This document shows positions 4,542 to 39,156 of a stretch of DNA of 64,000 bases, one piece after another (the first letter of the stretch is position 1; the number at the start of each line of letters is the position of its first letter). Source of the DNA: Candidatus Rokuibacteriota bacterium (lineage in GTDB: Bacteria; Methylomirabilota; Methylomirabilia; Rokubacteriales; CSP1-6); the NCBI GenBank assembly GCA_003221515.1, contig QHSI01000129.1, positions 6,646 through 70,645 on the forward strand. The letters are read 5' to 3'. The position numbers were made by a program, and so were the translations under genes. The notes beneath the pieces are model-generated. The model was not told the origin of the DNA, did not search any database, and worked only from the letters and a program-made list of their open reading frames with translations.

Positions 4542-7500
4542 CTAGCGGTTCATGACCTCCGCCACCATTCGCGTCAGCGCGTCGGGCGTGAATGGCTTCG
4601 TGAGCAGCACGGTGCGCGGATCGAGCACGCCGTGGTGCACGATCGCGTCGCCCGTATAGCCCGACATGTACAGCACCTTCATCTCGGGCCGCGCCGGCGC
4701 CAGCCGATCGGCGAGGTCGCGCCCGCTCATCTCCGGCATGACGACGTCGGTCAACAGCAGGTGGATCGGCCCCGTGTGCCCGCGCGCGACCTCCAGCGCC
4801 TCGTTCGGGCCGCCGGCCGACAGGACCGAGTAGCCGGCGATCCCGAGGACCTCGGTGGCAAGCGAGCGGAGCTCGCCTTCGTCCTCGACGACGAGCACGG
4901 TACCGGAGGCGCGGACCGGCGGTACGGTCTCGACCGTGGCGCTCCTGTGGACGGGCGCCGAGACGCGCGAGAGATAGATGCTCACCGCGGTGCCGGCGCC
5001 CAGTGCGCTCTCGAGCCGCACGTACCCGTCGTGCTGCTTGACGATGCCGTAGACGGTCGCGAGCCCGAGCCCGGTGCCCTTGCCGACCCCTTTGGTCGTG
5101 AAGAACGGTTCGAAGACGTGGGCCTGGACCTCGGGGCTCATTCCGATCCCGGTGTCGCGCACGCGGAACATCGCGTGCGGTCCAAGGCTCGAGCCCGGAT
5201 GGGCGTCTACGAAGTCGGTGTCGAGCTCGACGTCGGCGGTCTCGATGCTCAGGCGCCCGCCCTGCGGCATCGCGTCGCGCGCGTTCACCGCCAGGTTCAG
5301 GATGATCTGCTCGATCTGCGCGGGGTCGGCCTTGACGCGGCCGAGCGTGGGGTCGAGCACCGTGATCAGCTCGATCGTCTCGCCGATCAGGGGCTTGAGC
5401 ATCTGGGCCATGTTCCCCACCACGTCGTTGAGATCGAGCACGCGCGGCTGGAGCATCTGCTTGCGGCTGAAGGCGAGCAGCTGCTGGGTGAGGGACGCCG
5501 CGCGGTCCGCCGTCTTCTTGACCAGCTCGATGTCGCGCCGCCGCGGGTCGTCGGCGGTGAGGCGGAGCAGGAGCAGCTCGGTCCGGCCGGTGATGACCGT
5601 GAGGAGGTTGTTGAAGTCGTGCGCGATCCCGCCGGCGAGCCGGCCGACCGCTTCCATCTTCTGGGCCTGACGCAGCTGCGCCTCGCTCTGGCGCAGCGCC
5701 TCTTCGGCGCGCTTGCGCTCGGTGATGTCCAGCACCGTCGACTGGATGGCGGGCTCGTTCTCCCAGAGGATTGCCGAGACCTGGATGTCGAACCAGACGA
5801 GCGAGCCGTCTTTCCTCACGGCCTGGGACTCGTACTGCGAAGGCACCGCCTCGCCCCGTAGCCGCGCCGCAAGGTAGCCCTCGAGCCGGGGCAGCTCGGC
5901 GGGCGCCATCCATCGGCGAGAGTCGATGCCGATGAGATCGCTCACGCTCTCGTAGCCCAGCATCCGCGCGAACGTCGAGTTGACGAAGAGCGTGACCCAG
6001 CTCCGGTGGATGTGGATGCCCTGGATGGAGCCTTCCACGAGCGTCCGGTACCGTCGCTCGCTCTCCCGCTCGCGCGCGAACAGCTGGGCGTTCCGGAGGG
6101 CGATGGCGGCCTCGTCGGCCAGGCGCGACAGGACGGCCTCGTCGTGATCGGTGAACGGTCGCGGCGAGCGGTTGGCGACATAGATGAGCCCGATCGCGCG
6201 ATCCGCGCTCTTGATCGGCACCGCCATGGCGGCGACGGTCTCGTTGGCACGGGCGCGGTCGAGATATGCCTTGTCGAAGGACGCGTCGTTCGGATAGTCA
6301 TCGGTCCGGCACGGCCGGCCGGTCAGGAGCGCGCGGCCGCCGAGACCCTTGCCCGGCTCGATGAGGTTGGGTCGCGCGGGCATGTCGCGCGCGCCGACGG
6401 CGTAACGCACGGTGACCGGCTCCTCGTCGTCCTCCCGGAACCCGATCAGCGCCAGGTCGCTGCGCGCGAGCTCCTTCGCCCCGTCGGTGATCCGCCGCAG
6501 CACCGCCTCGACGTCGAGGGAGACGGTGAGCGCACGGGAGACGTCGGCCAGGACCTCCGACTCCCGGCGGCGCCGCTCGCTGTCCTCGAACAGGCGCGCG
6601 TTCTCGAGCGCGAGCGCCGCCTGGGTGGCGAACGCCTGCAGGAGCTCGACCTGTCGCTGGGAGAACGGCCCGACGTCGTCCCGATACGTGACGAGCGCGC
6701 CGAGCACGCGATCACCGACGAGCAACGGCGTGGAGAGCACCGCCCGGTAGCCCTCGGCTTCGACCGCCGCGCGAGTCGTTGGTGCCAGGTCGAAGTCCGG
6801 ATCGTTGAGCAGATCCGCCGACCAGACGGGTCGTCGCTGGGCGATGGCGGCGGGCGTGGTGCCGTCGCGCGGGTGCCGGGGTCGCATGCCCGCGGGGAAT
6901 CCCCGGCTCATGCCGCGGCTGGCCTGGAACCCGAAGGGGCTCCCGGGCTCGCCGGCGTTCAGGAGCGCGACCGCCGAGCGCTGGGTCCCGAGCAGGGCGC
7001 AGGCGCGGTCCACGACGAACGAGAGGATCTCCTGGAGGTCGAGGGACGACGTGATCGCGCTGCCGAGCTCGGCGAGCGCCTCCGCCTCGTGGCGCCGCGC
7101 GGCGCTGTCGGTGAACAGGCGCGCGTTGCCGATCGCGACGGCGGCATGGTCGGCGAGGCCGAGCAAGATGTGCTCGTCGCGATCGGTGAGGATCCGGTCA
7201 TCCCGGTTCGACACCGCCAGGAATCCCTCGACCCCCTCCTCGATCTTGATCGGGACCGCCATGTACGCGCGCATGCCTTCCTCGCGCGCGATCGTCGCGA
7301 ACGTCGGGGAGATCCGGGGATCCTCGAGGTAGCGGTCCGTCCGGAACGGACGGCCGTTGACGAGGACGAGACCGGCGGCGCCCTGCCCCGGCGCGATGCG
7401 CATCGAGCGGTAGCCGTCGTACTCCGCGCCCGGCCAGTGGCGGAACTCGACGCTGTCGGTGCTCGGATCACGCAGCGCGACGAACGACATGTCGCTCTGG

Positions 7501-8219
7501 CACACCCCGCGGGCGCCCTCGGCGATTCGCTGCAGCACCGTCGACAGATCGAGCGACGTGTTGATGGTGCGTACCACCGCCGCCAGTAGCTCGGACTCGC
7601 GTCGGCGCCGCTCGGTCTCTTCGTAGAGCCGGGCGTTTACGATGGCGATGGCGGCCTGGTCCGCCAGGAGCCCGCAGAGATTCCGCTCCTCGGGCGTGAA
7701 GGCGCCGCGCTGGCCGAAGGCCACGATCAGCGCGCCGACCGCGCGCTCCTGATGCAGCAGCGGCTGTGCGATGCACGCGTGGAGGTCGGCTTCCCTCGCC
7801 AGCACCGGGTTGAGCCAGCGGGGATCCCGCTGCACGTCTTCGACGTACTCGGGCCGCCGCGACTGCAGGACGTCCGCGGACAGGCTGCCCTTGCGAGAGA
7901 CCGGCACGATCGTGGCAGGCGCCCGCGTCGCGAGCCTCGCGTCCGCCCAGTAGCTCCCGGCCTCCTTCAGCCGCTCGCCGCCGGCGTCGATCCAGACGTA
8001 CGCCATCTTCGCCTTGAGCAACGTCGAGGCCGCCTCGGCGATGCCGCGGAAGACGGCGTCGCTGTCGGTCGCCGACGTGATGAGGCGCGTCAGCTGGCTG
8101 AGCGTGGTGAGGCGTTCGGCGCGCTCCTCGGCCTGCTGGATCAGCCGGGTCCGCGGGCTCGGGGTCTTCGACGCCGTGCGCCGGCCCGGCCGCGGCCTGG
8201 ACTTACTCGGCTTGCTCAA
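4542..8219 (-). CDS. Hybrid sensor histidine kinase (4xGAF-PAS-HisKA-HATPase-REC)
   Basis: Four GAF repeats ending in NARL(Y/F), PAS (YESQAVRKDGS), GGIAHDFNNLL, EPFFTTKGVGKGTGLGL, C-terminal LLLTDVVMP receiver; TTG start uncertain. Confidence 0.9.
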   Translation of the reverse strand: MSKPSKSRPRPGRRTASKTPSPRTRLIQQAEERAERLTTLSQLTRLITSATDSDAVFRGIAEAASTLLKAKMAYVWIDAGGERLKEAGSYWADARLATRAPATIVPVSRKGSLSADVLQSRRPEYVEDVQRDPRWLNPVLAREADLHACIAQPLLHQERAVGALIVAFGQRGAFTPEERNLCGLLADQAAIAIVNARLYEETERRRRESELLAAVVRTINTSLDLSTVLQRIAEGARGVCQSDMSFVALRDPSTDSVEFRHWPGAEYDGYRSMRIAPGQGAAGLVLVNGRPFRTDRYLEDPRISPTFATIAREEGMRAYMAVPIKIEEGVEGFLAVSNRDDRILTDRDEHILLGLADHAAVAIGNARLFTDSAARRHEAEALAELGSAITSSLDLQEILSFVVDRACALLGTQRSAVALLNAGEPGSPFGFQASRGMSRGFPAGMRPRHPRDGTTPAAIAQRRPVWSADLLNDPDFDLAPTTRAAVEAEGYRAVLSTPLLVGDRVLGALVTYRDDVGPFSQRQVELLQAFATQAALALENARLFEDSERRRRESEVLADVSRALTVSLDVEAVLRRITDGAKELARSDLALIGFREDDEEPVTVRYAVGARDMPARPNLIEPGKGLGGRALLTGRPCRTDDYPNDASFDKAYLDRARANETVAAMAVPIKSADRAIGLIYVANRSPRPFTDHDEAVLSRLADEAAIALRNAQLFARERESERRYRTLVEGSIQGIHIHRSWVTLFVNSTFARMLGYESVSDLIGIDSRRWMAPAELPRLEGYLAARLRGEAVPSQYESQAVRKDGSLVWFDIQVSAILWENEPAIQSTVLDITERKRAEEALRQSEAQLRQAQKMEAVGRLAGGIAHDFNNLLTVITGRTELLLLRLTADDPRRRDIELVKKTADRAASLTQQLLAFSRKQMLQPRVLDLNDVVGNMAQMLKPLIGETIELITVLDPTLGRVKADPAQIEQIILNLAVNARDAMPQGGRLSIETADVELDTDFVDAHPGSSLGPHAMFRVRDTGIGMSPEVQAHVFEPFFTTKGVGKGTGLGLATVYGIVKQHDGYVRLESALGAGTAVSIYLSRVSAPVHRSATVETVPPVRASGTVLVVEDEGELRSLATEVLGIAGYSVLSAGGPNEALEVARGHTGPIHLLLTDVVMPEMSGRDLADRLAPARPEMKVLYMSGYTGDAIVHHGVLDPRTVLLTKPFTPDALTRMVAEVMNR

Positions 8220-15768: not shown

Positions 15769-16185
15769 ATGGTGAGCATCGCGGTCTGTCCGCTGGCGCC
15801 CTCGGTGAGCGCGCGGCAGGCGCGCGTCGGCGTCGTGACGAACGTCGAAGGCATGGCGCCGGTCGCGCGCGTCGCGCTCCCGCAACCGCAGCCGCTCCGG
15901 TTCAAGGACGACGTGTTCCTCAAGGATCGGATCACGAGCTCAGCATCGTCAATGGGTTTGATTGAGCACCCTCCAAAGGCTTGGGAGGTGGCACTTCGGT
16001 CGACACATCGCTCATTCATCAGCTCCGCCCCTGGCACGCTCAACGCCTGCGCGATGCGTTGGAGGATGGGCAGGACGCGCCACACTTTACTAGCCGCCGT
16101 CAGCCGCATGGGCACCTGGTGGAGGATGGCTGGCGGGAGCCTAGCCGAAGGCCACGATGCGCACCGGCGCCCCGGCCGGGACTGA
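15769..16185 (+). pseudogene. Possible truncated FecR-domain secreted protein remnant
   Basis: ARVGVVTNVEG...VALPQPQPLRFKDDVFLKDRIT recalls FecR-domain N-termini; coding-like codon bias is lost after about 15940. Confidence 0.35.
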
Positions 16186-16228
16186 ACCGGAGCGCGGGAT
16201 ACCTAGCTGGTGACGCGGCCTTCGCTTC

Positions 16229-16304
16229 CGGCTATGCTAATAGCCGTCCCTGAACCCCTGGCTTTGCGGTCAGCGAAAGCCTGAACAACACTGTCTTGTT
16301 TTTT
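16229..16304 (+). promoter_or_regulatory. Structured leader with terminator-like end upstream of the Clp-N/KOW gene
   Basis: Hairpins CGGCTAT-GCTA-ATAGCCG (16229-16246) and GGCTTT...AAAGCC (16260-16281), then AACAA/TTGTT with a T6 tract (16299-16304). Confidence 0.4.
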
Positions 16305-16325
16305 CCCCCTGCTCGGAGGTGCGAA

Positions 16326-16940
16326 ATGGTTGACCGGTTTGCCGAAGGAGCGCGACGGAGCATCGCTTCGGCAACGATCGAGGCGAGGCGGCACGGTGTT
16401 GTGCGGAGCGACCACTTGCTCTTTGTCGTGGTTCGTGACGGTGCAGGGTTTAGCGCTCGAATCTTGCGGCTCATGGGCGTCGATTTGGCGAGTTTGGCGA
16501 GCCAGATTCAGCAGGACTGGACTGCTTCACCGGATGTTGCTGTCGCGGGCGAGATGGCGTTTTCCCCGGATATGAAACAGGCTCTCGCTATGTCGCTAGA
16601 GGCCGCCACAGAATTGGGGCATAGGCACGTCAGAATCGAGCATCTTCTGCTCGGCATCGTGAAGACCGGAGAGTCGAGGGCCGCAGAACTTCTCCGGCAT
16701 TTCGGCGTCTCGGCTGATAGCCTTCGTGAGGCGATTACTGAACAGAGCGTGGGCGGGGCCAAACAGTTCCAGGGCGGAGATCGTGTCCGCATCCTCGAAG
16801 GACCATTCAAGAACTTTCCCGGCGTTGTGGAACAGTTCGTCGCCGAAGAGGGGCGAGTGCGCGTCGCCGTACCGGTCTTTGGACGTGTCACGCCGGTTGA
16901 CCTTCGCTGGTACGAAGTGGAGCATACCCAGGCGTCGTAG
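16326..16940 (+). CDS. Clp N-terminal (double Clp-repeat) domain fused to a NusG C-terminal KOW domain
   Basis: GGAGGT RBS; DRFAEGARRSI, SDHLLF, FSPDMKQAL, IEHLLLGI, then FQGGDRVRILEGPFKNFPGVVE...VFGRVTPVDL. Confidence 0.85.
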   Translation: MVDRFAEGARRSIASATIEARRHGVVRSDHLLFVVVRDGAGFSARILRLMGVDLASLASQIQQDWTASPDVAVAGEMAFSPDMKQALAMSLEAATELGHRHVRIEHLLLGIVKTGESRAAELLRHFGVSADSLREAITEQSVGGAKQFQGGDRVRILEGPFKNFPGVVEQFVAEEGRVRVAVPVFGRVTPVDLRWYEVEHTQAS

Positions 16941-17118
16941 AGCAGCATGGGGAACTGATTCATGCTGGTTCACGCCGGAGGGAAACGGCGGGCTCCAGGG
17001 GGAAGACGAACGCCCCGGCCAAGGCACCGGGGCGTCGGTGATCTCGCGCGAGAACGACGGGCTACGCGGCCAGGGCCAGCGTACCCTCGAAGTGCACCGT
17101 CAGGTCAGGGGTGGCAAC

Positions 17119-17154: not shown

Positions 17155-17918
17155 TCAGCTTGCCCCGGGGTAGAACGCGTCGCGGCCGCGCTGATAGGTC
17201 CGCTGCTGCTGCGCCGGGTTGCGACTCACGAGCGGACGCATGAACATCGGGTGCGTCGCGCTGCGGACCTCGTGCTCGATGGTGAAGAGCACCTTCGAGG
17301 TCTCCGGATCGACGATGTCCTTGAAGCGGTACTGCACCGGGTTCGACTCCTCGCTGATGAGGCCGCGCTCCTTCAGCCACCGGTGCGGGCCCGAGAAGTT
17401 CGTCACGTAGATCGCGATGTGGTGACCGTCGTACGGCACCTCGGGCTCGGCGGTCTCACGGAAGATCAATTGCTGCTTGGCGCCGACCTGCACCTTGGAA
17501 TGCCGAGAGTCATGTCGCCGAACTCGGGACCGGGCGCGTGGAAGCGCATGCGGTTCCCCCAGGGACAGGTCACGCTGATGTACTTGTCCTCGGCGGCGCA
17601 CATGAACTTCGTGCCCGCGAGCTTCTCGCGGGCGGCCCCCAGTCGCATCTTCAGGCCTTCGATGTCCGGAATCACGAAGCCGACGACGCCGCGGAGCACT
17701 TCCGGCTTACCGGTCGGCATGTGGAACTGCTGCTGTCCCGCATTGATCCACATGTTCTCGGTGCCGGTCATGATGTACGGGTCGCGGGTGAGCCCGAGAG
17801 TCGTCACGTAGAAGTTGGTCGCGGTCGCCTGATCCGGGATCTTCACGTTGACGTGCTCGAGCAGGATGATGTTGCCGATGTCTTCTGCGGTCCGATCGAA
17901 CACCTTGTCCCCTGGCAT
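17155..17918 (-). pseudogene. VOC-like (two-domain glyoxalase-type) protein split by a frameshifting deletion near 17497
   Basis: N-half LLEHVNVKIPDQ...GDMTLGIP and C-half KVQVGAKQQLIF...YDGHHIAIY...FTIEHEVRS are in different frames; GGGAGG RBS before ATG 17918. Confidence 0.7.
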
Positions 17919-17995
17919 TATTGACCTCCCAATCTTGGCCCCCGTCACGGGATGCTCACGGCGTAGGATAAACCGAATTCGATCGGGAGGGCGAA

Positions 17996-18829
17996 ATGGA
18001 ATTCGGTCTGTTCACGGAGTTCCACAGTCCGCCGGGCGTGAGTGAGGCGGCGGCATTCGACGAGTCGCTGGCGCAGATGAAAGCGGCCGAGGATTTCGGA
18101 TTCGACGCGGTATGTTTGGCCGAAATCCACTTCCAAAAGGATCGATCGGTGCTGGCCGCGCCGTTGATCATCGCGTCCGCGCTGGCCGCCTGCACGCGAC
18201 GCGTCAAGATCGGGATCGCCGTCCAGGTTTTGCCGCTGAGCCACCCGTTGCGTCTGGCCGAAGACGTCGCCACCGTCGACCATATTTCCAAGGGACGACT
18301 GGAGTTCGGCGTCGGGCGCAGCGGGCTGCCCGGGCACTACCAGGGCGTGAACATTCCGTACAGCGAGAGCCGCGACCGCTTCCTCGAGACCCTCGACATA
18401 TTGCGTAAAGCGTGGACCCAGGAGCGCTTTTCACACCAGGGGAAGTATTTCCAGTTTCAGGACCTCTGCATCATGCCCAAGCCGTTTCAGAAGCCGCACC
18501 CGCCCATCCGCATCGCACAGAAGCGAGCACGATGGGCTTCTTCCGGTCGATCAGCTCGGCGCTCCGGAAATTCGACGGCGCGACCGCGCAGACCGCGGAA
18601 GCGCGCGCGGCGCGGGCCAATCGCCTCGCCGAAATCTCTTACGACGAGATCCTGAGCGAGTACGCCGTGTTCGGCACACCCGAAGCGGTGGTGGATCGGC
18701 TGCAGCAGCTGCGCGAGCAGATGGGGTTTCGACGCTCTCGACGTGGATGAACCCAGGCGGTCGAATCCCAAACGAGCGCGTCCTCAATCCATGCGCTTGT
18801 TCGCCGAGCGCGTAGCGCCGTTGTTGTAA
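17996..18829 (+). pseudogene. LLM-class flavin-dependent oxidoreductase with one internal deletion and two -1 frameshifts
   Basis: MEFGLF, AEIHF, LAEDVATVDHISKGRLEFGVGR, PKPFQKPHPPIRIA; remaining pieces in other frames to SMRLFAERVAPLL-TAA. Confidence 0.8.
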
Positions 18830-36891: not shown

Positions 36892-37042
36892 TACGTATAG
36901 TCGCTCACGACGTAGCCGGGTTGTTCGCACACAGGAATAAATGAATAAATGAGCGATCGGTCTCGAGGGTGTGCTCGCCGATCGTGGAGCCTGGTTCAGC
37001 CCCGACGGGGCGGCAGAAACCAAAGGGGGCGAAGCCTATTCC

Positions 37043-37612
37043 ATGAACGCGTCGACAATCGAGTTGAACGCTTCCGCGGCGACGGTGACCGCGACCCTGG
37101 CGCTGTCGCCGACACCCGCGTGGCACGCCCTGTGGACGCGCAGCCATTGCGAGCAAATGGTCGTGGACCAGCTGGCGGCGAAGGGATTCGAGCTGTTTCT
37201 GCCGAGGGTCGGCCGTTGGGCACGGCACGGTGATGTCAGGCGCCGCATCGTGGTTCCGATGTTCCCGGGGTACGTCTTCCTGCACGGGAGGGTCGACAAG
37301 GTGGCGTATCTCGAAATCGTCAAGACGCGCGGGCTGGCGCAGATTCTCGGCGAGCGCTGGGACCGGCTGGCGACGATCGATGTCAGGGAGATTGAGGCGC
37401 TCCGGAGGATCGTCGCCGTCAAGGCGCCGGCCCTACCGTACGCCTACTTGCGGGCAGGCCAGCGCATCCGGATCACGCGGGGCCCGCTGGCCGAGCTCGA
37501 GGGCATTCTCGTCCGCGCCAAGGAGAATCGGGGTCTGCTAGTGGTGGCCGTCGAGCTCCTTCGGTGCGGTGTCGCAGTGCAAGTGGACTGCACGTCGGTG
37601 ACGCCTCTCTGA
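37043..37612 (+). CDS. NusG paralog / transcription antiterminator (UpxY/LoaP/RfaH-like)
   Basis: WHALWTRSHCE, FLP...VPMFPGYVF (NGN); GQRIRITRGPLAELEG (KOW); first gene of the EPS operon. Confidence 0.85.
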   Translation: MNASTIELNASAATVTATLALSPTPAWHALWTRSHCEQMVVDQLAAKGFELFLPRVGRWARHGDVRRRIVVPMFPGYVFLHGRVDKVAYLEIVKTRGLAQILGERWDRLATIDVREIEALRRIVAVKAPALPYAYLRAGQRIRITRGPLAELEGILVRAKENRGLLVVAVELLRCGVAVQVDCTSVTPL

Positions 37613-37614
37613 GC

Positions 37615-39156
37615 GTGTCCGTGGGAGAGCACCCTTCCTTGATATCCGCCACCGTGGCGGGGGTGTGGGGCCGGCGAAGGACGCTCGCGCTCGCCGTTTT
37701 CGCCACGGCTCTCGCCGGCACCCTGACTCTCGCGGCGGCGCTCCCCGGCGTCTACCGCGCCACGGCAACCGTGTTGGTGGAGCGCCAGGACATGCCGGGA
37801 GCGTTCGCGCGGGCCGCGATCACGGGAGACCTCGAAGCCCGGCTGCACCGGATCGGGCAGGAAATCCTGAGCCGGGCGCGACTCGCGATGCTCATGGACC
37901 ACTTCGATCTCTACCCCGAGCTGCGGTCAGCCGGCGCGCTCGAGGCGGCGGTCGACAGGATGCGGCGCGATATCCAGGTCGAGCTCAAGGGTGTCGTCGA
38001 GCCGGTGGCCGGGCGGGGGACGACGGTCGCTTTCACGGTGAGCTTCCGTGGCCGCGATCCGGAGGCGGTGGCGCGCGTCGCGAACGCCGTGACGTCCTTC
38101 TACGTCGAGGAGAACGTCAAGATCCGCGAACGGCAGGCCGCCGACGCCGCCAAGACCCTGAACGACCAGCTCGAGGAGGCGCAGCAGAAGCTGCGGGACC
38201 AGGAGCGCCGGATCAACGCGTTCAAGTGGCGTCACCTCGGCCAGCTCCCCGAGCAGGTGACGTCGAACCTGTCGACGCTCACGCAGCTGAACACCCAGCT
38301 CGGGATCAACAACAGCAGCCAGACCCGCGTCCTCGAACGGCGTGACGCCCTCTCCCGGCGACTCGACGGCGGGGGGACGTCCGCCGAGGCCAAGGGCGAG
38401 GAGGCGCCGGGTGCGCGTCTGGCCCGCCTGAAGCAGGATCTGATTCGAATGCGAAAGCTCTTTAGCGACAAATATCCGGACGTCGTCGCGCTGGAGGCGG
38501 AGATCGCGGCACTCGAGCTACCGGCGGCGGGCGCCGACGGCACGCCGCCCGAGCACACCATCGCCGGAATCAGGAAATCACTGACCGATCTGGACGCCGA
38601 GATGAGCGCGCTGAAGGACGAGGAAAAACGGCTGCGGCGCGACCTTGTCACGTATCAGCGTCGGATCGAAGCCGCGCCGGAGCGAGACCTGGAGCTGCAG
38701 GAGATGTCGCGTGACTACCGGACGACGCAGGAGCTCTACGACACCACGCTCAAGCGCGTTCAGGCGGAGAGCATGGAGCGCCGTCGGACCGGCGAGGAGT
38801 TCCGGATCCTGGATCCGGCGGTGACGCCCCGCCAGCCGGTGGCGCCGAACCGCCTCCGTATGGTCCTCGTCGGCCTGATGCTGGCGCTCGGGGGCGCCAC
38901 CGTCGCGGTGGTGCTGGCCGAGCACATCGACACGTCGTTCCACACGCTCGACGATTTGCGGGCGTTCACCAAGGTGCCCGTGCTGGCCAGCGTTCCGCGC
39001 ATCGTACGGGCGACCGACACGGCGAGGCAGGCGCGCCAGCGCTGGCTGGCGGCGGCCTTGATCACGCTCGGACTCGTGCTCATCGTCGTGGTGCTCCATC
39101 GGCTCGCCGCGGGGAACTACTTTCTGGTGGAGGCGCTCTTGCGAGGCGCGTCGTGA
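37615..39156 (+). CDS. Polysaccharide chain-length determinant (Wzc N-terminal/GumC-like)
   Basis: YRATATVLVE, ILSRARL, YSDKYPD-like FSDKYPDVVAL, coiled coils, FRILDPAVTP...PNR, two TMs; GTG start uncertain. Confidence 0.85.
   Translation: MSVGEHPSLISATVAGVWGRRRTLALAVFATALAGTLTLAAALPGVYRATATVLVERQDMPGAFARAAITGDLEARLHRIGQEILSRARLAMLMDHFDLYPELRSAGALEAAVDRMRRDIQVELKGVVEPVAGRGTTVAFTVSFRGRDPEAVARVANAVTSFYVEENVKIRERQAADAAKTLNDQLEEAQQKLRDQERRINAFKWRHLGQLPEQVTSNLSTLTQLNTQLGINNSSQTRVLERRDALSRRLDGGGTSAEAKGEEAPGARLARLKQDLIRMRKLFSDKYPDVVALEAEIAALELPAAGADGTPPEHTIAGIRKSLTDLDAEMSALKDEEKRLRRDLVTYQRRIEAAPERDLELQEMSRDYRTTQELYDTTLKRVQAESMERRRTGEEFRILDPAVTPRQPVAPNRLRMVLVGLMLALGGATVAVVLAEHIDTSFHTLDDLRAFTKVPVLASVPRIVRATDTARQARQRWLAAALITLGLVLIVVVLHRLAAGNYFLVEALLRGAS

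Follow-up and report, generated by a model that had tools for sequence, protein, structure and literature searches.

The window, the whole stretch of DNA analysed here, comprises 64,000 nucleotides of contig QHSI01000129.1 of a Candidatus Rokuibacteriota bacterium (positions 6,646 to 70,645 of the forward strand). It contains a gene for a protein in which an N-terminal domain of Clp proteins (Clp_N) is joined to a KOW domain of the kind that makes up the C-terminal domain (CTD) in the transcription factor NusG. NusG acts as a tether, with RNA polymerase (RNAP) held by its NGN domain and Rho or the ribosome by its KOW domain. In the fusion protein the polymerase handle of NusG is swapped for a Clp N-domain, and the face for Rho and ribosomal protein S10 is intact and under strong selection. 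The gene and its two domains have the following positions:

16326-16940, plus strand: Clp_N-KOW fusion gene, 204 amino acids plus stop codon.
16326-16760, plus strand: ClpC-type N-domain, residues 1 to about 145, with two repeats and eight helices (from Pfam, PDB sequences, and AlphaFold2 with Foldseek).
16767-16925, plus strand: NusG-type KOW beta-barrel, residues 148-200, with the loop V184-F185-G186-R187 (from profiles, PDB sequences, and AlphaFold2).

The fusion gene begins with an ATG at 16326, with the ribosome-binding site (RBS) GGAGGTG at 16315-16321, five bases 5' of it and conserved among the copies compared. An initial annotation made from the sequence had described a double Clp repeat followed by a NusG-CTD-like tail with an FGR motif, and neither an NGN nor an AAA+ domain; profile searches bear out each of these points. 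The Pfam Clp_N family (PF02861) matches in two stretches (72 bits against a cut-off of 20.7, E 4.5e-20), and the motifs SDHLLF and IEHLLLGI are present. The tail contains GDRVRILEGPF and VFGRVTPVDL, and residues 141-200 align with positions 112-171/172 of the NCBIfam nusG profile TIGR00922 (E 1.6e-15). No match to NGN (PF02357) or AAA+ was found in the protein by Pfam and NCBIfam scans. The two domains are separated by a linker of about eight residues. The AlphaFold2 model, calculated from a 100-sequence alignment, has a predicted local distance difference test score (pLDDT) of 89.4 and a predicted template-modelling score of 0.76, and consists of eight helices followed by a five-stranded barrel. 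Judged by these family profiles, the protein belongs neither to the NusG family nor to the Clp ATPases.

The junction of Clp_N and KOW, which the initial annotation had flagged as a possible assembly chimera, recurs in about 20 contigs that were assembled independently in several studies. Assemblies from NCBI, ENA, and JGI supply 18 contigs with the exact protein of the window, and further contigs carry variants with 92-98% nucleotide identity. The 90% cluster of the fusion protein comprises 50 sequences; one of them is NCBI PYN12233.1, which a Rokubacteria metagenome-assembled genome (MAG) lists as a 'hypothetical protein'. Full-length homologs extend to a second lineage (proteins P0003 and P0309; loci L001, L074, and L075), which is 62% identical and of equal length and architecture. 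The gene copy in locus L006 (145-755) is frameshifted near codon 98.

Ratios of nonsynonymous to synonymous substitution rates (dN/dS) were estimated by the Nei-Gojobori method. Between the window and L005, at a synonymous divergence (dS) of 0.17, dN/dS is 0.13 overall and 0.06 in the KOW part; between the window and L001, at a dS of 1.15, the values are 0.24 and 0.18. The KOW part is the most constrained region of the protein, with dN/dS of 0.06-0.19 across the comparisons. The low ratios, both overall and in the KOW part, indicate that both domains and their junction are maintained by selection. The mosaic flanks described below, the frameshifted copy in L006, and the decayed neighbouring genes are what an assembly chimera, a pseudogene, or a chance open reading frame (ORF) might leave. 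However, such an artefact is effectively refuted by the identity of the junction in the 18 exact-protein contigs and in variants from other studies, by the same architecture in the 62% identical homolog at the divergence and constraint given above for L001, by the conserved RBS, and by the confident modelling of both domains.

The fusion is a real and conserved architecture and, as far as the searches reach, undescribed, as the initial annotation had supposed. In a word-indexed search of 5.8 billion proteins, only P0001, P0002, and P0003 covered the whole query. In a profile search of 1.84 billion representatives, the cluster of P0003 alone matched positions 1-204 among the best 150 matches listed; these are dominated by tandem Clp_N proteins, and a fusion with a score under about 142 bits might have escaped notice. 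Proteins P0207, P0209, and P0212 were considered as full-length relatives and rejected, being Clp_N domains with helical or coiled-coil tails, or ClpC fragments, without KOW. Peptide-pattern scans, which could miss distant members, found no relatives in GTDB species representatives or IMG/VR, and tblastn searches of plasmids and phages returned only N-termini of Clp ATPases. The architecture was found neither in the PDB nor in literature searches, and PADLOC gave no match, so the protein is not a known defence component. All carriers of the fusion are soil metagenomes or Rokubacteria MAGs, and they form two clusters. A DAO-GCV_T protein encoded in the neighbourhood shares 81-86% identity with proteins from Candidatus Rokubacteria/Methylomirabilota MAGs, which places the window in this phylum.

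Metagenomes are rich in Clp_N proteins that are not ATPases, among them P0036 with 1762 residues and up to 13 Clp_N stretches. In the profile search Clp_N is also fused to UVR, ClpX zinc finger, RidA, ArsR/GntR helix-turn-helix, ACT, and NTF2-like domains. Fusion to so many other small domains indicates that Clp_N is a portable module.

On sequence grounds, the C-terminal domain of the fusion protein is of the housekeeping-NusG type and stands apart from ribosomal KOW proteins and from specialised NusG paralogs. The Pfam KOW family (PF00467) matches residues 151-178 with 22.4 bits, barely above its cut-off of 22.3, and the models of the specialised paralogs UpxY, LoaP, and RfaH reach E-values of only 0.006-0.017. 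Compared with all PDB sequences, residues 141-204 match NusG CTDs from Aquifex, E. coli, Thermus, and others (E 3e-12 to 1e-8), and the Rho-bound CTD (6duq) and the S10-bound CTD (2kvq) are among the matches (E ~1e-12). Ribosomal KOW proteins, a grouping that would have spoken against the initial annotation, are absent from these PDB matches, and the KOW domains of Spt5 rank lower, near noise level. The barrel of the AlphaFold2 model matches viral NusG and stand-alone KOW proteins in the Foldseek search of BFVD.

The surface by which NusG binds Rho and S10 is kept, as had been proposed from the FGR motif. Residues F141, F144, G146, V148, V160, F165, G166, R167, T169, and P170 of E. coli NusG are identical in the fusion KOW domain, I164 is replaced by valine, and N145 by proline. 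In the numbering of the fusion protein, V184-F185-G186-R187 and F164/G166 correspond to the (I/V)FGR and F144/G146 loops of the E. coli protein. The I164-F165-G166 loop of NusG provides key contacts to Rho and was lost early in specialised paralogs, and RfaH acquires Rho binding once the loop is grafted in (PMC7593976). One face of the NusG CTD serves both Rho and S10 (PMC4496710). The FGR motif is lost in the NusG paralogs examined, which have VLGR in L008 and L011 (ordinary proteins with NGN and KOW domains) and LLRCG in the product of 36971-37612 of the window. In L009 and L010 the match is confined to the KOW region (residues 142-198, 37% identity).

The gene at 36971-37612 (plus strand) encodes an UpxY/RfaH-like NusG paralog (NF033644, E 6e-24), the KOW domain of which is without FGR. 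Directly downstream of it, at 37564-39156, is a gene for an XrtA-type polysaccharide chain-length determinant.

Since Rho and S10 share the face that is conserved here, the KOW domain could be directed to the ribosome. It would dock to S10 of the 30S subunit and place the peptide-binding Clp_N domain on ribosomes, with no direct action on Rho. In variants of this explanation, the protein would block the transcription-translation coupling by NusG, or mark or hold ribosomes under proteotoxic stress. F165, which the fusion protein keeps, is essential for S10 binding by NusG (PMC7390762), RfaH shows S10 binding to be less sensitive to changes of sequence than Rho binding (PMC7593976), and the hydrophobic groove of Clp_N in ClpB/ClpC binds unfolded polypeptides (PMC12583610). 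However, S10 is located on the head of the 30S subunit, distant from the peptide exit tunnel, so that a function with nascent chains is hard to see, and the Rho-specific IFG loop, which is lost in proteins binding only S10, is retained here and points to Rho. A purely ribosomal function is rather improbable, and we favour Rho as the partner.

The N-terminal 139 residues of the fusion protein align end to end with the N-domains of ClpC1 and ClpC from the PDB (E ~7e-21, ~32% identity). The helices of the AlphaFold2 model span residues 7-22, 28-37, 42-49, 54-63, 81-96, 104-114, 118-125, and 130-145, in agreement with the eight-helix pseudo-dimer that two tandem repeats of ~70 residues form in Clp_N. 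In Foldseek comparisons the helical part superimposes on structures of the ClpC1 N-terminal domain (NTD) with template-modelling (TM) scores of 0.86-0.91 (up to 0.91 normalised to the target) and root-mean-square deviations of 1.3-1.9 Å; for 7aa4_A the values are 0.86 and 1.3 Å. The top structural matches are drug-bound ClpC1 NTDs. Families of complete Clp ATPases score 25-50 bits against cut-offs of 885-1900, and the protein ends at residue 204.

The residues with which ClpC reads phospho-arginine (pArg) are kept in part. E32 and E106 of ClpC are crucial determinants of pArg recognition (PMC12583610), and the conserved threonine of the pocket is needed in ClpC2 (PMC13345244). The two GTEH motifs of the ClpC N-domain read RSDH and RIEH in the fusion protein. 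E106 is kept as E105, and E32 is replaced by D29 in the protein of the window but is glutamate in P0003. The threonines of the GTEH motifs are replaced by S28 in the first repeat (T31 of ClpC) and by I104 in the second (T105 of ClpC). T7 corresponds to A6 in the protein of the window and is threonine in other variants, and T81 is replaced by S80.

The initial annotation had suggested a decoy or an adaptor linked to Clp proteolysis. As an adaptor, the KOW domain would capture Rho or S10/NusE, and Clp_N would hand the captured protein over to ClpC-ClpP for degradation. The N-domain is nearest to the NTDs of ClpC and ClpC1, and pArg pockets of these NTDs contact the M-domains of ClpC in its resting state, so that a free NTD could in principle dock on ClpC (PMC12583610); moreover, ClpA, ClpP, and SspB are among the putative Rho interactors identified by mass spectrometry, according to a review (PMC12360218). 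Against this, the known adaptors MecA, McsB, and ClpS bind N-domains and contain none, the pocket residues are degenerate (T105 to I, T31 to S, E32 to D, and T7 to A), and no linked clp gene occurs in the contexts inspected. Delivery to the protease is improbable. The suggestion thus retains the conserved KOW face, while its Clp-delivery part is weakened by the degenerate pArg pockets and by the logic of known adaptors.

The resemblance to drug-bound ClpC1 NTDs, together with the soil origin of the organism and the mobile cassette described below, would also suit a decoy of the ClpC NTD that acts as a sponge. In soil, such a protein would soak up pArg ligands or NTD-directed natural products of the cyclomarin, rufomycin, ecumicin, or lassomycin type, its KOW domain would merely localise or oligomerise it, and the gene would be a mobile resistance-like cassette. 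ClpC2 is such a sponge and sensor (PMC10030653, PMC13345244). However, conservation is only partial at the ClpC1 positions to which the mutant structures F2Y and F80Y point (in the alignment, F2 is replaced by V2, and F80 is kept as F79), and selection constrains the KOW domain more strongly than the rest of the protein, which is unexpected for a mere tether. This explanation is quite improbable, and the Rho-directed function is preferred to it.

The fusion gene is the core of a cassette of about 0.85-1.05 kb that has low GC content at third codon positions (GC3) and a hairpin at each end. Its remaining parts are the following:

16167-16195, no strand assigned: upstream cassette hairpin GCGCCCCGG-N11-CCGGAGCGC, one arm of which is mutated in the window.
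16196-16325, plus strand: conserved 130-nucleotide leader with a possible weak promoter, a palindrome, and the RBS.
16941-16994, plus strand: segment of the 3' untranslated region with the local hairpin CAGCATG...CATGCTG (from sequence comparison).
17010-17035, no strand assigned: downstream cassette hairpin ACGCCCCGG-CCAAGGCA-CCGGGGCGT (from motif search; folding z-score -3.6).

The two hairpins are copies of one motif, and the upstream copy is intact in L002 (1792-1817) and L004 (889-911). The downstream hairpin motif has a single exact occurrence in the window (0.09 expected), and only one other match was found in 52 unrelated loci; these counts led to the rejection of the hairpin as a genome-wide repetitive extragenic palindromic (REP) element. 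The downstream hairpin may also be a terminator that does not have a U-tract. Immediately 3' of the stop codon, positions 16943-16994 form a 52-bp indel that is absent from L006 and L073.

The leader contains a candidate promoter, GTGACG-17 nucleotides-TATGCT, read by eye only; a scan of the window detected no consensus promoter or terminator, the candidate promoter of the leader included. The palindrome GGCTATGCTAATAGCC is located at 16230-16245. L074 (~1940-1960) and L001 have in its place a hairpin with another sequence, GACTCTGG...CCGGAGTC, and in both lineages GTCCC follows. The palindrome or hairpin may serve as an operator or as an RNA hairpin. The leaders fold no better than shuffled sequences (z ~0), and the local hairpin is the only one common to both lineages. 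Rfam and tRNA scans of the window found nothing.

Integron cassettes carry, directly behind the ORF, an attC site (57 bp or longer) with R''/R' cores (RYYYAAC...GTTRRRY), and their 5' untranslated region is very short. The hairpins of the fusion cassette are about 26 bp long, no core sites were seen on reading, and the leader has 130 nucleotides; an integron gene cassette was therefore rejected. Like hairpins are present at both ends and coincide with breaks of synteny; the cassette might be a hairpin-ended non-autonomous element, either a palindrome-associated transposable element of the IS200/IS605 type or a REP-like one. Elements of this kind have subterminal palindromes at both ends and are mobilised in trans by a Y1 (HUH) transposase. 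A transposase that recognises the hairpins and acts in trans is our guess at the vehicle of the cassette. The lineage of L074 has no GCCCCGG hairpins, and its neighbours are a FabH-like gene and a response regulator.

The AT-richer codons noted in the initial annotation are evident in the GC3 of the fusion gene, which is 0.66, compared with 0.83-0.98 in five intact or nearly intact neighbouring reading frames. The regional GC content around the gene is 0.59-0.61, compared with 0.65-0.73 in the flanks. The fragments of a split luciferase-like gene at 17996-18750 have GC3 values of 0.77 and 0.65, below the other neighbours.

The cassette is found in at least four left and at least three right flank contexts. 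The left flank shared by L002 and L005, which encodes a zinc-ribbon protein and an SLT transglycosylase, joins at position 16168 of the window, exactly at the hairpin, and L004 and L073 provide two further left flanks. On the right side, L005 and L007 diverge from the window at 16980 and continue with a copy of the left end and then an ABC substrate-binding gene, and L004 and L006 diverge at about 17147. The second left-end copy (L005 3105-3158 and L007 337-390) comprises the hairpin and about 35 bp and is 83% identical to L002 1788-1844; this copy may be either a solo end or what is left of a tandem cassette.

The combinations of flanks are mosaic; L002, for instance, has its left flank in common with L005 and its right flank with the window. 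L002 shares 1.8 kb of upstream sequence with L005, yet its gene is 99.7% identical to that of the window, whereas the gene of L005 differs (dS 0.16). The mosaic reflects either real recombination or joins made by the assembler across a repeat. Whichever its origin, the cassette is present at several loci in soil Rokubacteria populations. Horizontal mobility is supported by this presence at several loci, by the low GC3, and by the cassette-specific flanking hairpins; the recent acquisition suggested by the initial annotation is thereby extended to a hairpin-bounded cassette in several genomic contexts.

The surroundings of the cassette seem to be variable and in decay. A gene for a protein of 290-300 amino acids at 17155-17948 (minus strand) is split into two overlapping ORFs by the loss of 109 bp at the breakpoint 17496/17497; these bases are present in L003, L064-L068, L070, and L071, and the gene is intact in L003 (2115-3017). 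The luciferase-like monooxygenase gene at 17996-18750 (plus strand) is split over two frames in the window and intact in L064 (277 amino acids), and at this position L065-L067 have only short called genes without a Bac_luciferase match. Farther away, at 4542-8219 (minus strand), the window encodes a large hybrid sensor kinase with four GAF domains, a PAS domain, HisKA/HATPase, and a receiver domain, adjoined by genes for an ATP-grasp ligase and a B12-radical SAM protein.

The interpretation that we prefer, with a probability of roughly 0.4, is that the fusion protein is a trans-acting NusG CTD on another handle, directed at Rho, which competes with RNAP-bound NusG and causes anti-termination or anti-silencing. 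It is favoured because the Rho loop is retained, the KOW domain is strongly constrained, and the cassette is mobile and foreign-looking. The protein cannot ride on RNAP because it has no NGN domain, and it cannot unfold proteins or dock to ClpP because it has no AAA+ module. In the mechanism that we infer, each binding event and the effect on termination are predictions. The conserved surface around the F-G-R loop of the KOW domain would bind what the NusG CTD normally binds, mainly the Rho hexamer and perhaps S10/NusE as well. A free CTD must compete for these partners because they share one CTD face, and the competitor would be NusG, which stimulates Rho as a factor tethered to RNAP. Rho termination that depends on NusG would be weakened as a result; it is this arm of termination that keeps foreign and poorly translated DNA silent. 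The spread of a mobile cassette would fit a benefit from anti-silencing. The Clp_N domain would provide a second binding site, for an unfolded or pArg-like peptide or for a ClpC adaptor or M-domain. By analogy to ClpC2, this site might make the effect conditional, or it might bridge the partner to the Clp system. ClpC2 sets a precedent for a Clp_N-like domain that acts as a ligand sensor controlling a transcription effector (PMC13345244).

Several observations weigh against this interpretation. The isolated NusG CTD can stimulate closure of the Rho ring in vitro; the sign of the effect on termination is uncertain because a free CTD might activate Rho instead of inhibiting it. Canonical pArg reading by the Clp_N domain is doubtful on the basis of its residues, with one glutamate kept and the threonine partners not. 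The contexts inspected contain no operon partner that would give a functional hint, and the gene is solitary in every context, divergent from its upstream and convergent with its downstream neighbour. Some of the mosaic flanks may be chimeras that arose at a repeat during metagenome assembly. The family is extremely rare, hence it represents no general strategy; this rarity limits the general importance of the fusion, not its value as a mechanistic lead. The more elaborate proposal, in which the protein is a mobile NusG-CTD mimic gated by a Clp_N sensor of proteotoxic stress and the first anti-Rho or anti-silencing factor of its sort, is unlikely. If this gated mimic existed, signals of protein quality control would be coupled directly to Rho-dependent termination. 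If the KOW domain binds Rho or S10, the protein would be a natural probe of a free or differently tethered NusG tail in termination, xenogeneic silencing, and transcription-translation coupling, and it would represent a new class of Rho modulator on mobile DNA.

The fusion protein can be compared with several known systems. The C-terminal segment of about 55 residues is 42% identical to the CTD of E. coli NusG and 53% identical to that of the metagenomic NusG P0245, and the F141/F144/G146 and (I/V)FGR loops of housekeeping NusG (TIGR00922) are kept. However, the fusion protein has Clp_N in place of NGN, and it scores 57 bits against the family cut-off of 135.7. With the NTDs of ClpC and ClpC1 it shares the eight-helix fold of two repeats at about 32% identity, but it is without the AAA+ rings, the M-domain, and the ClpP loop, and the threonines and glutamates of the pArg pocket are partly replaced.

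The proposed outcome, a dampening of Rho termination by a protein, is that of Psu of phage P4 and of Rof/YaeO, and the link to mobile DNA is shared with Psu. In contrast, there is no similarity to these proteins in sequence or fold, and the mimicry of the NusG CTD proposed here differs from a Rho ring that is locked open. The stand-alone KOW proteins of phages (50-75 residues, BFVD) are likewise NGN-free barrels associated with mobile elements, with TM scores of 0.8-0.92 to the fusion KOW domain, but they are without Clp_N and only 17-24% identical. Mycobacterium phage Phabba encodes a stand-alone KOW protein as well as a Clp-family protein with an N-domain.

ClpC2 of Actinomycetota, a repressor and sponge that responds to pArg and antibiotics, is, like the fusion protein, non-proteolytic and has a Clp_N-type domain joined to a transcription-related effector. 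Structures of the ClpC2 CTD match the fusion model with TM scores of 0.75-0.77 (Foldseek). The DNA-binding domain of ClpC2 is N-terminal and precedes a Clp_N-like domain with one intact pArg site, whereas the fusion protein has a KOW effector in the reverse order and is without the pArg threonine; it also belongs to another phylum, and its gene is on a mobile cassette. The fusion extends the emerging picture set by ClpC2, of Clp_N as a portable sensor or docking module outside proteases.

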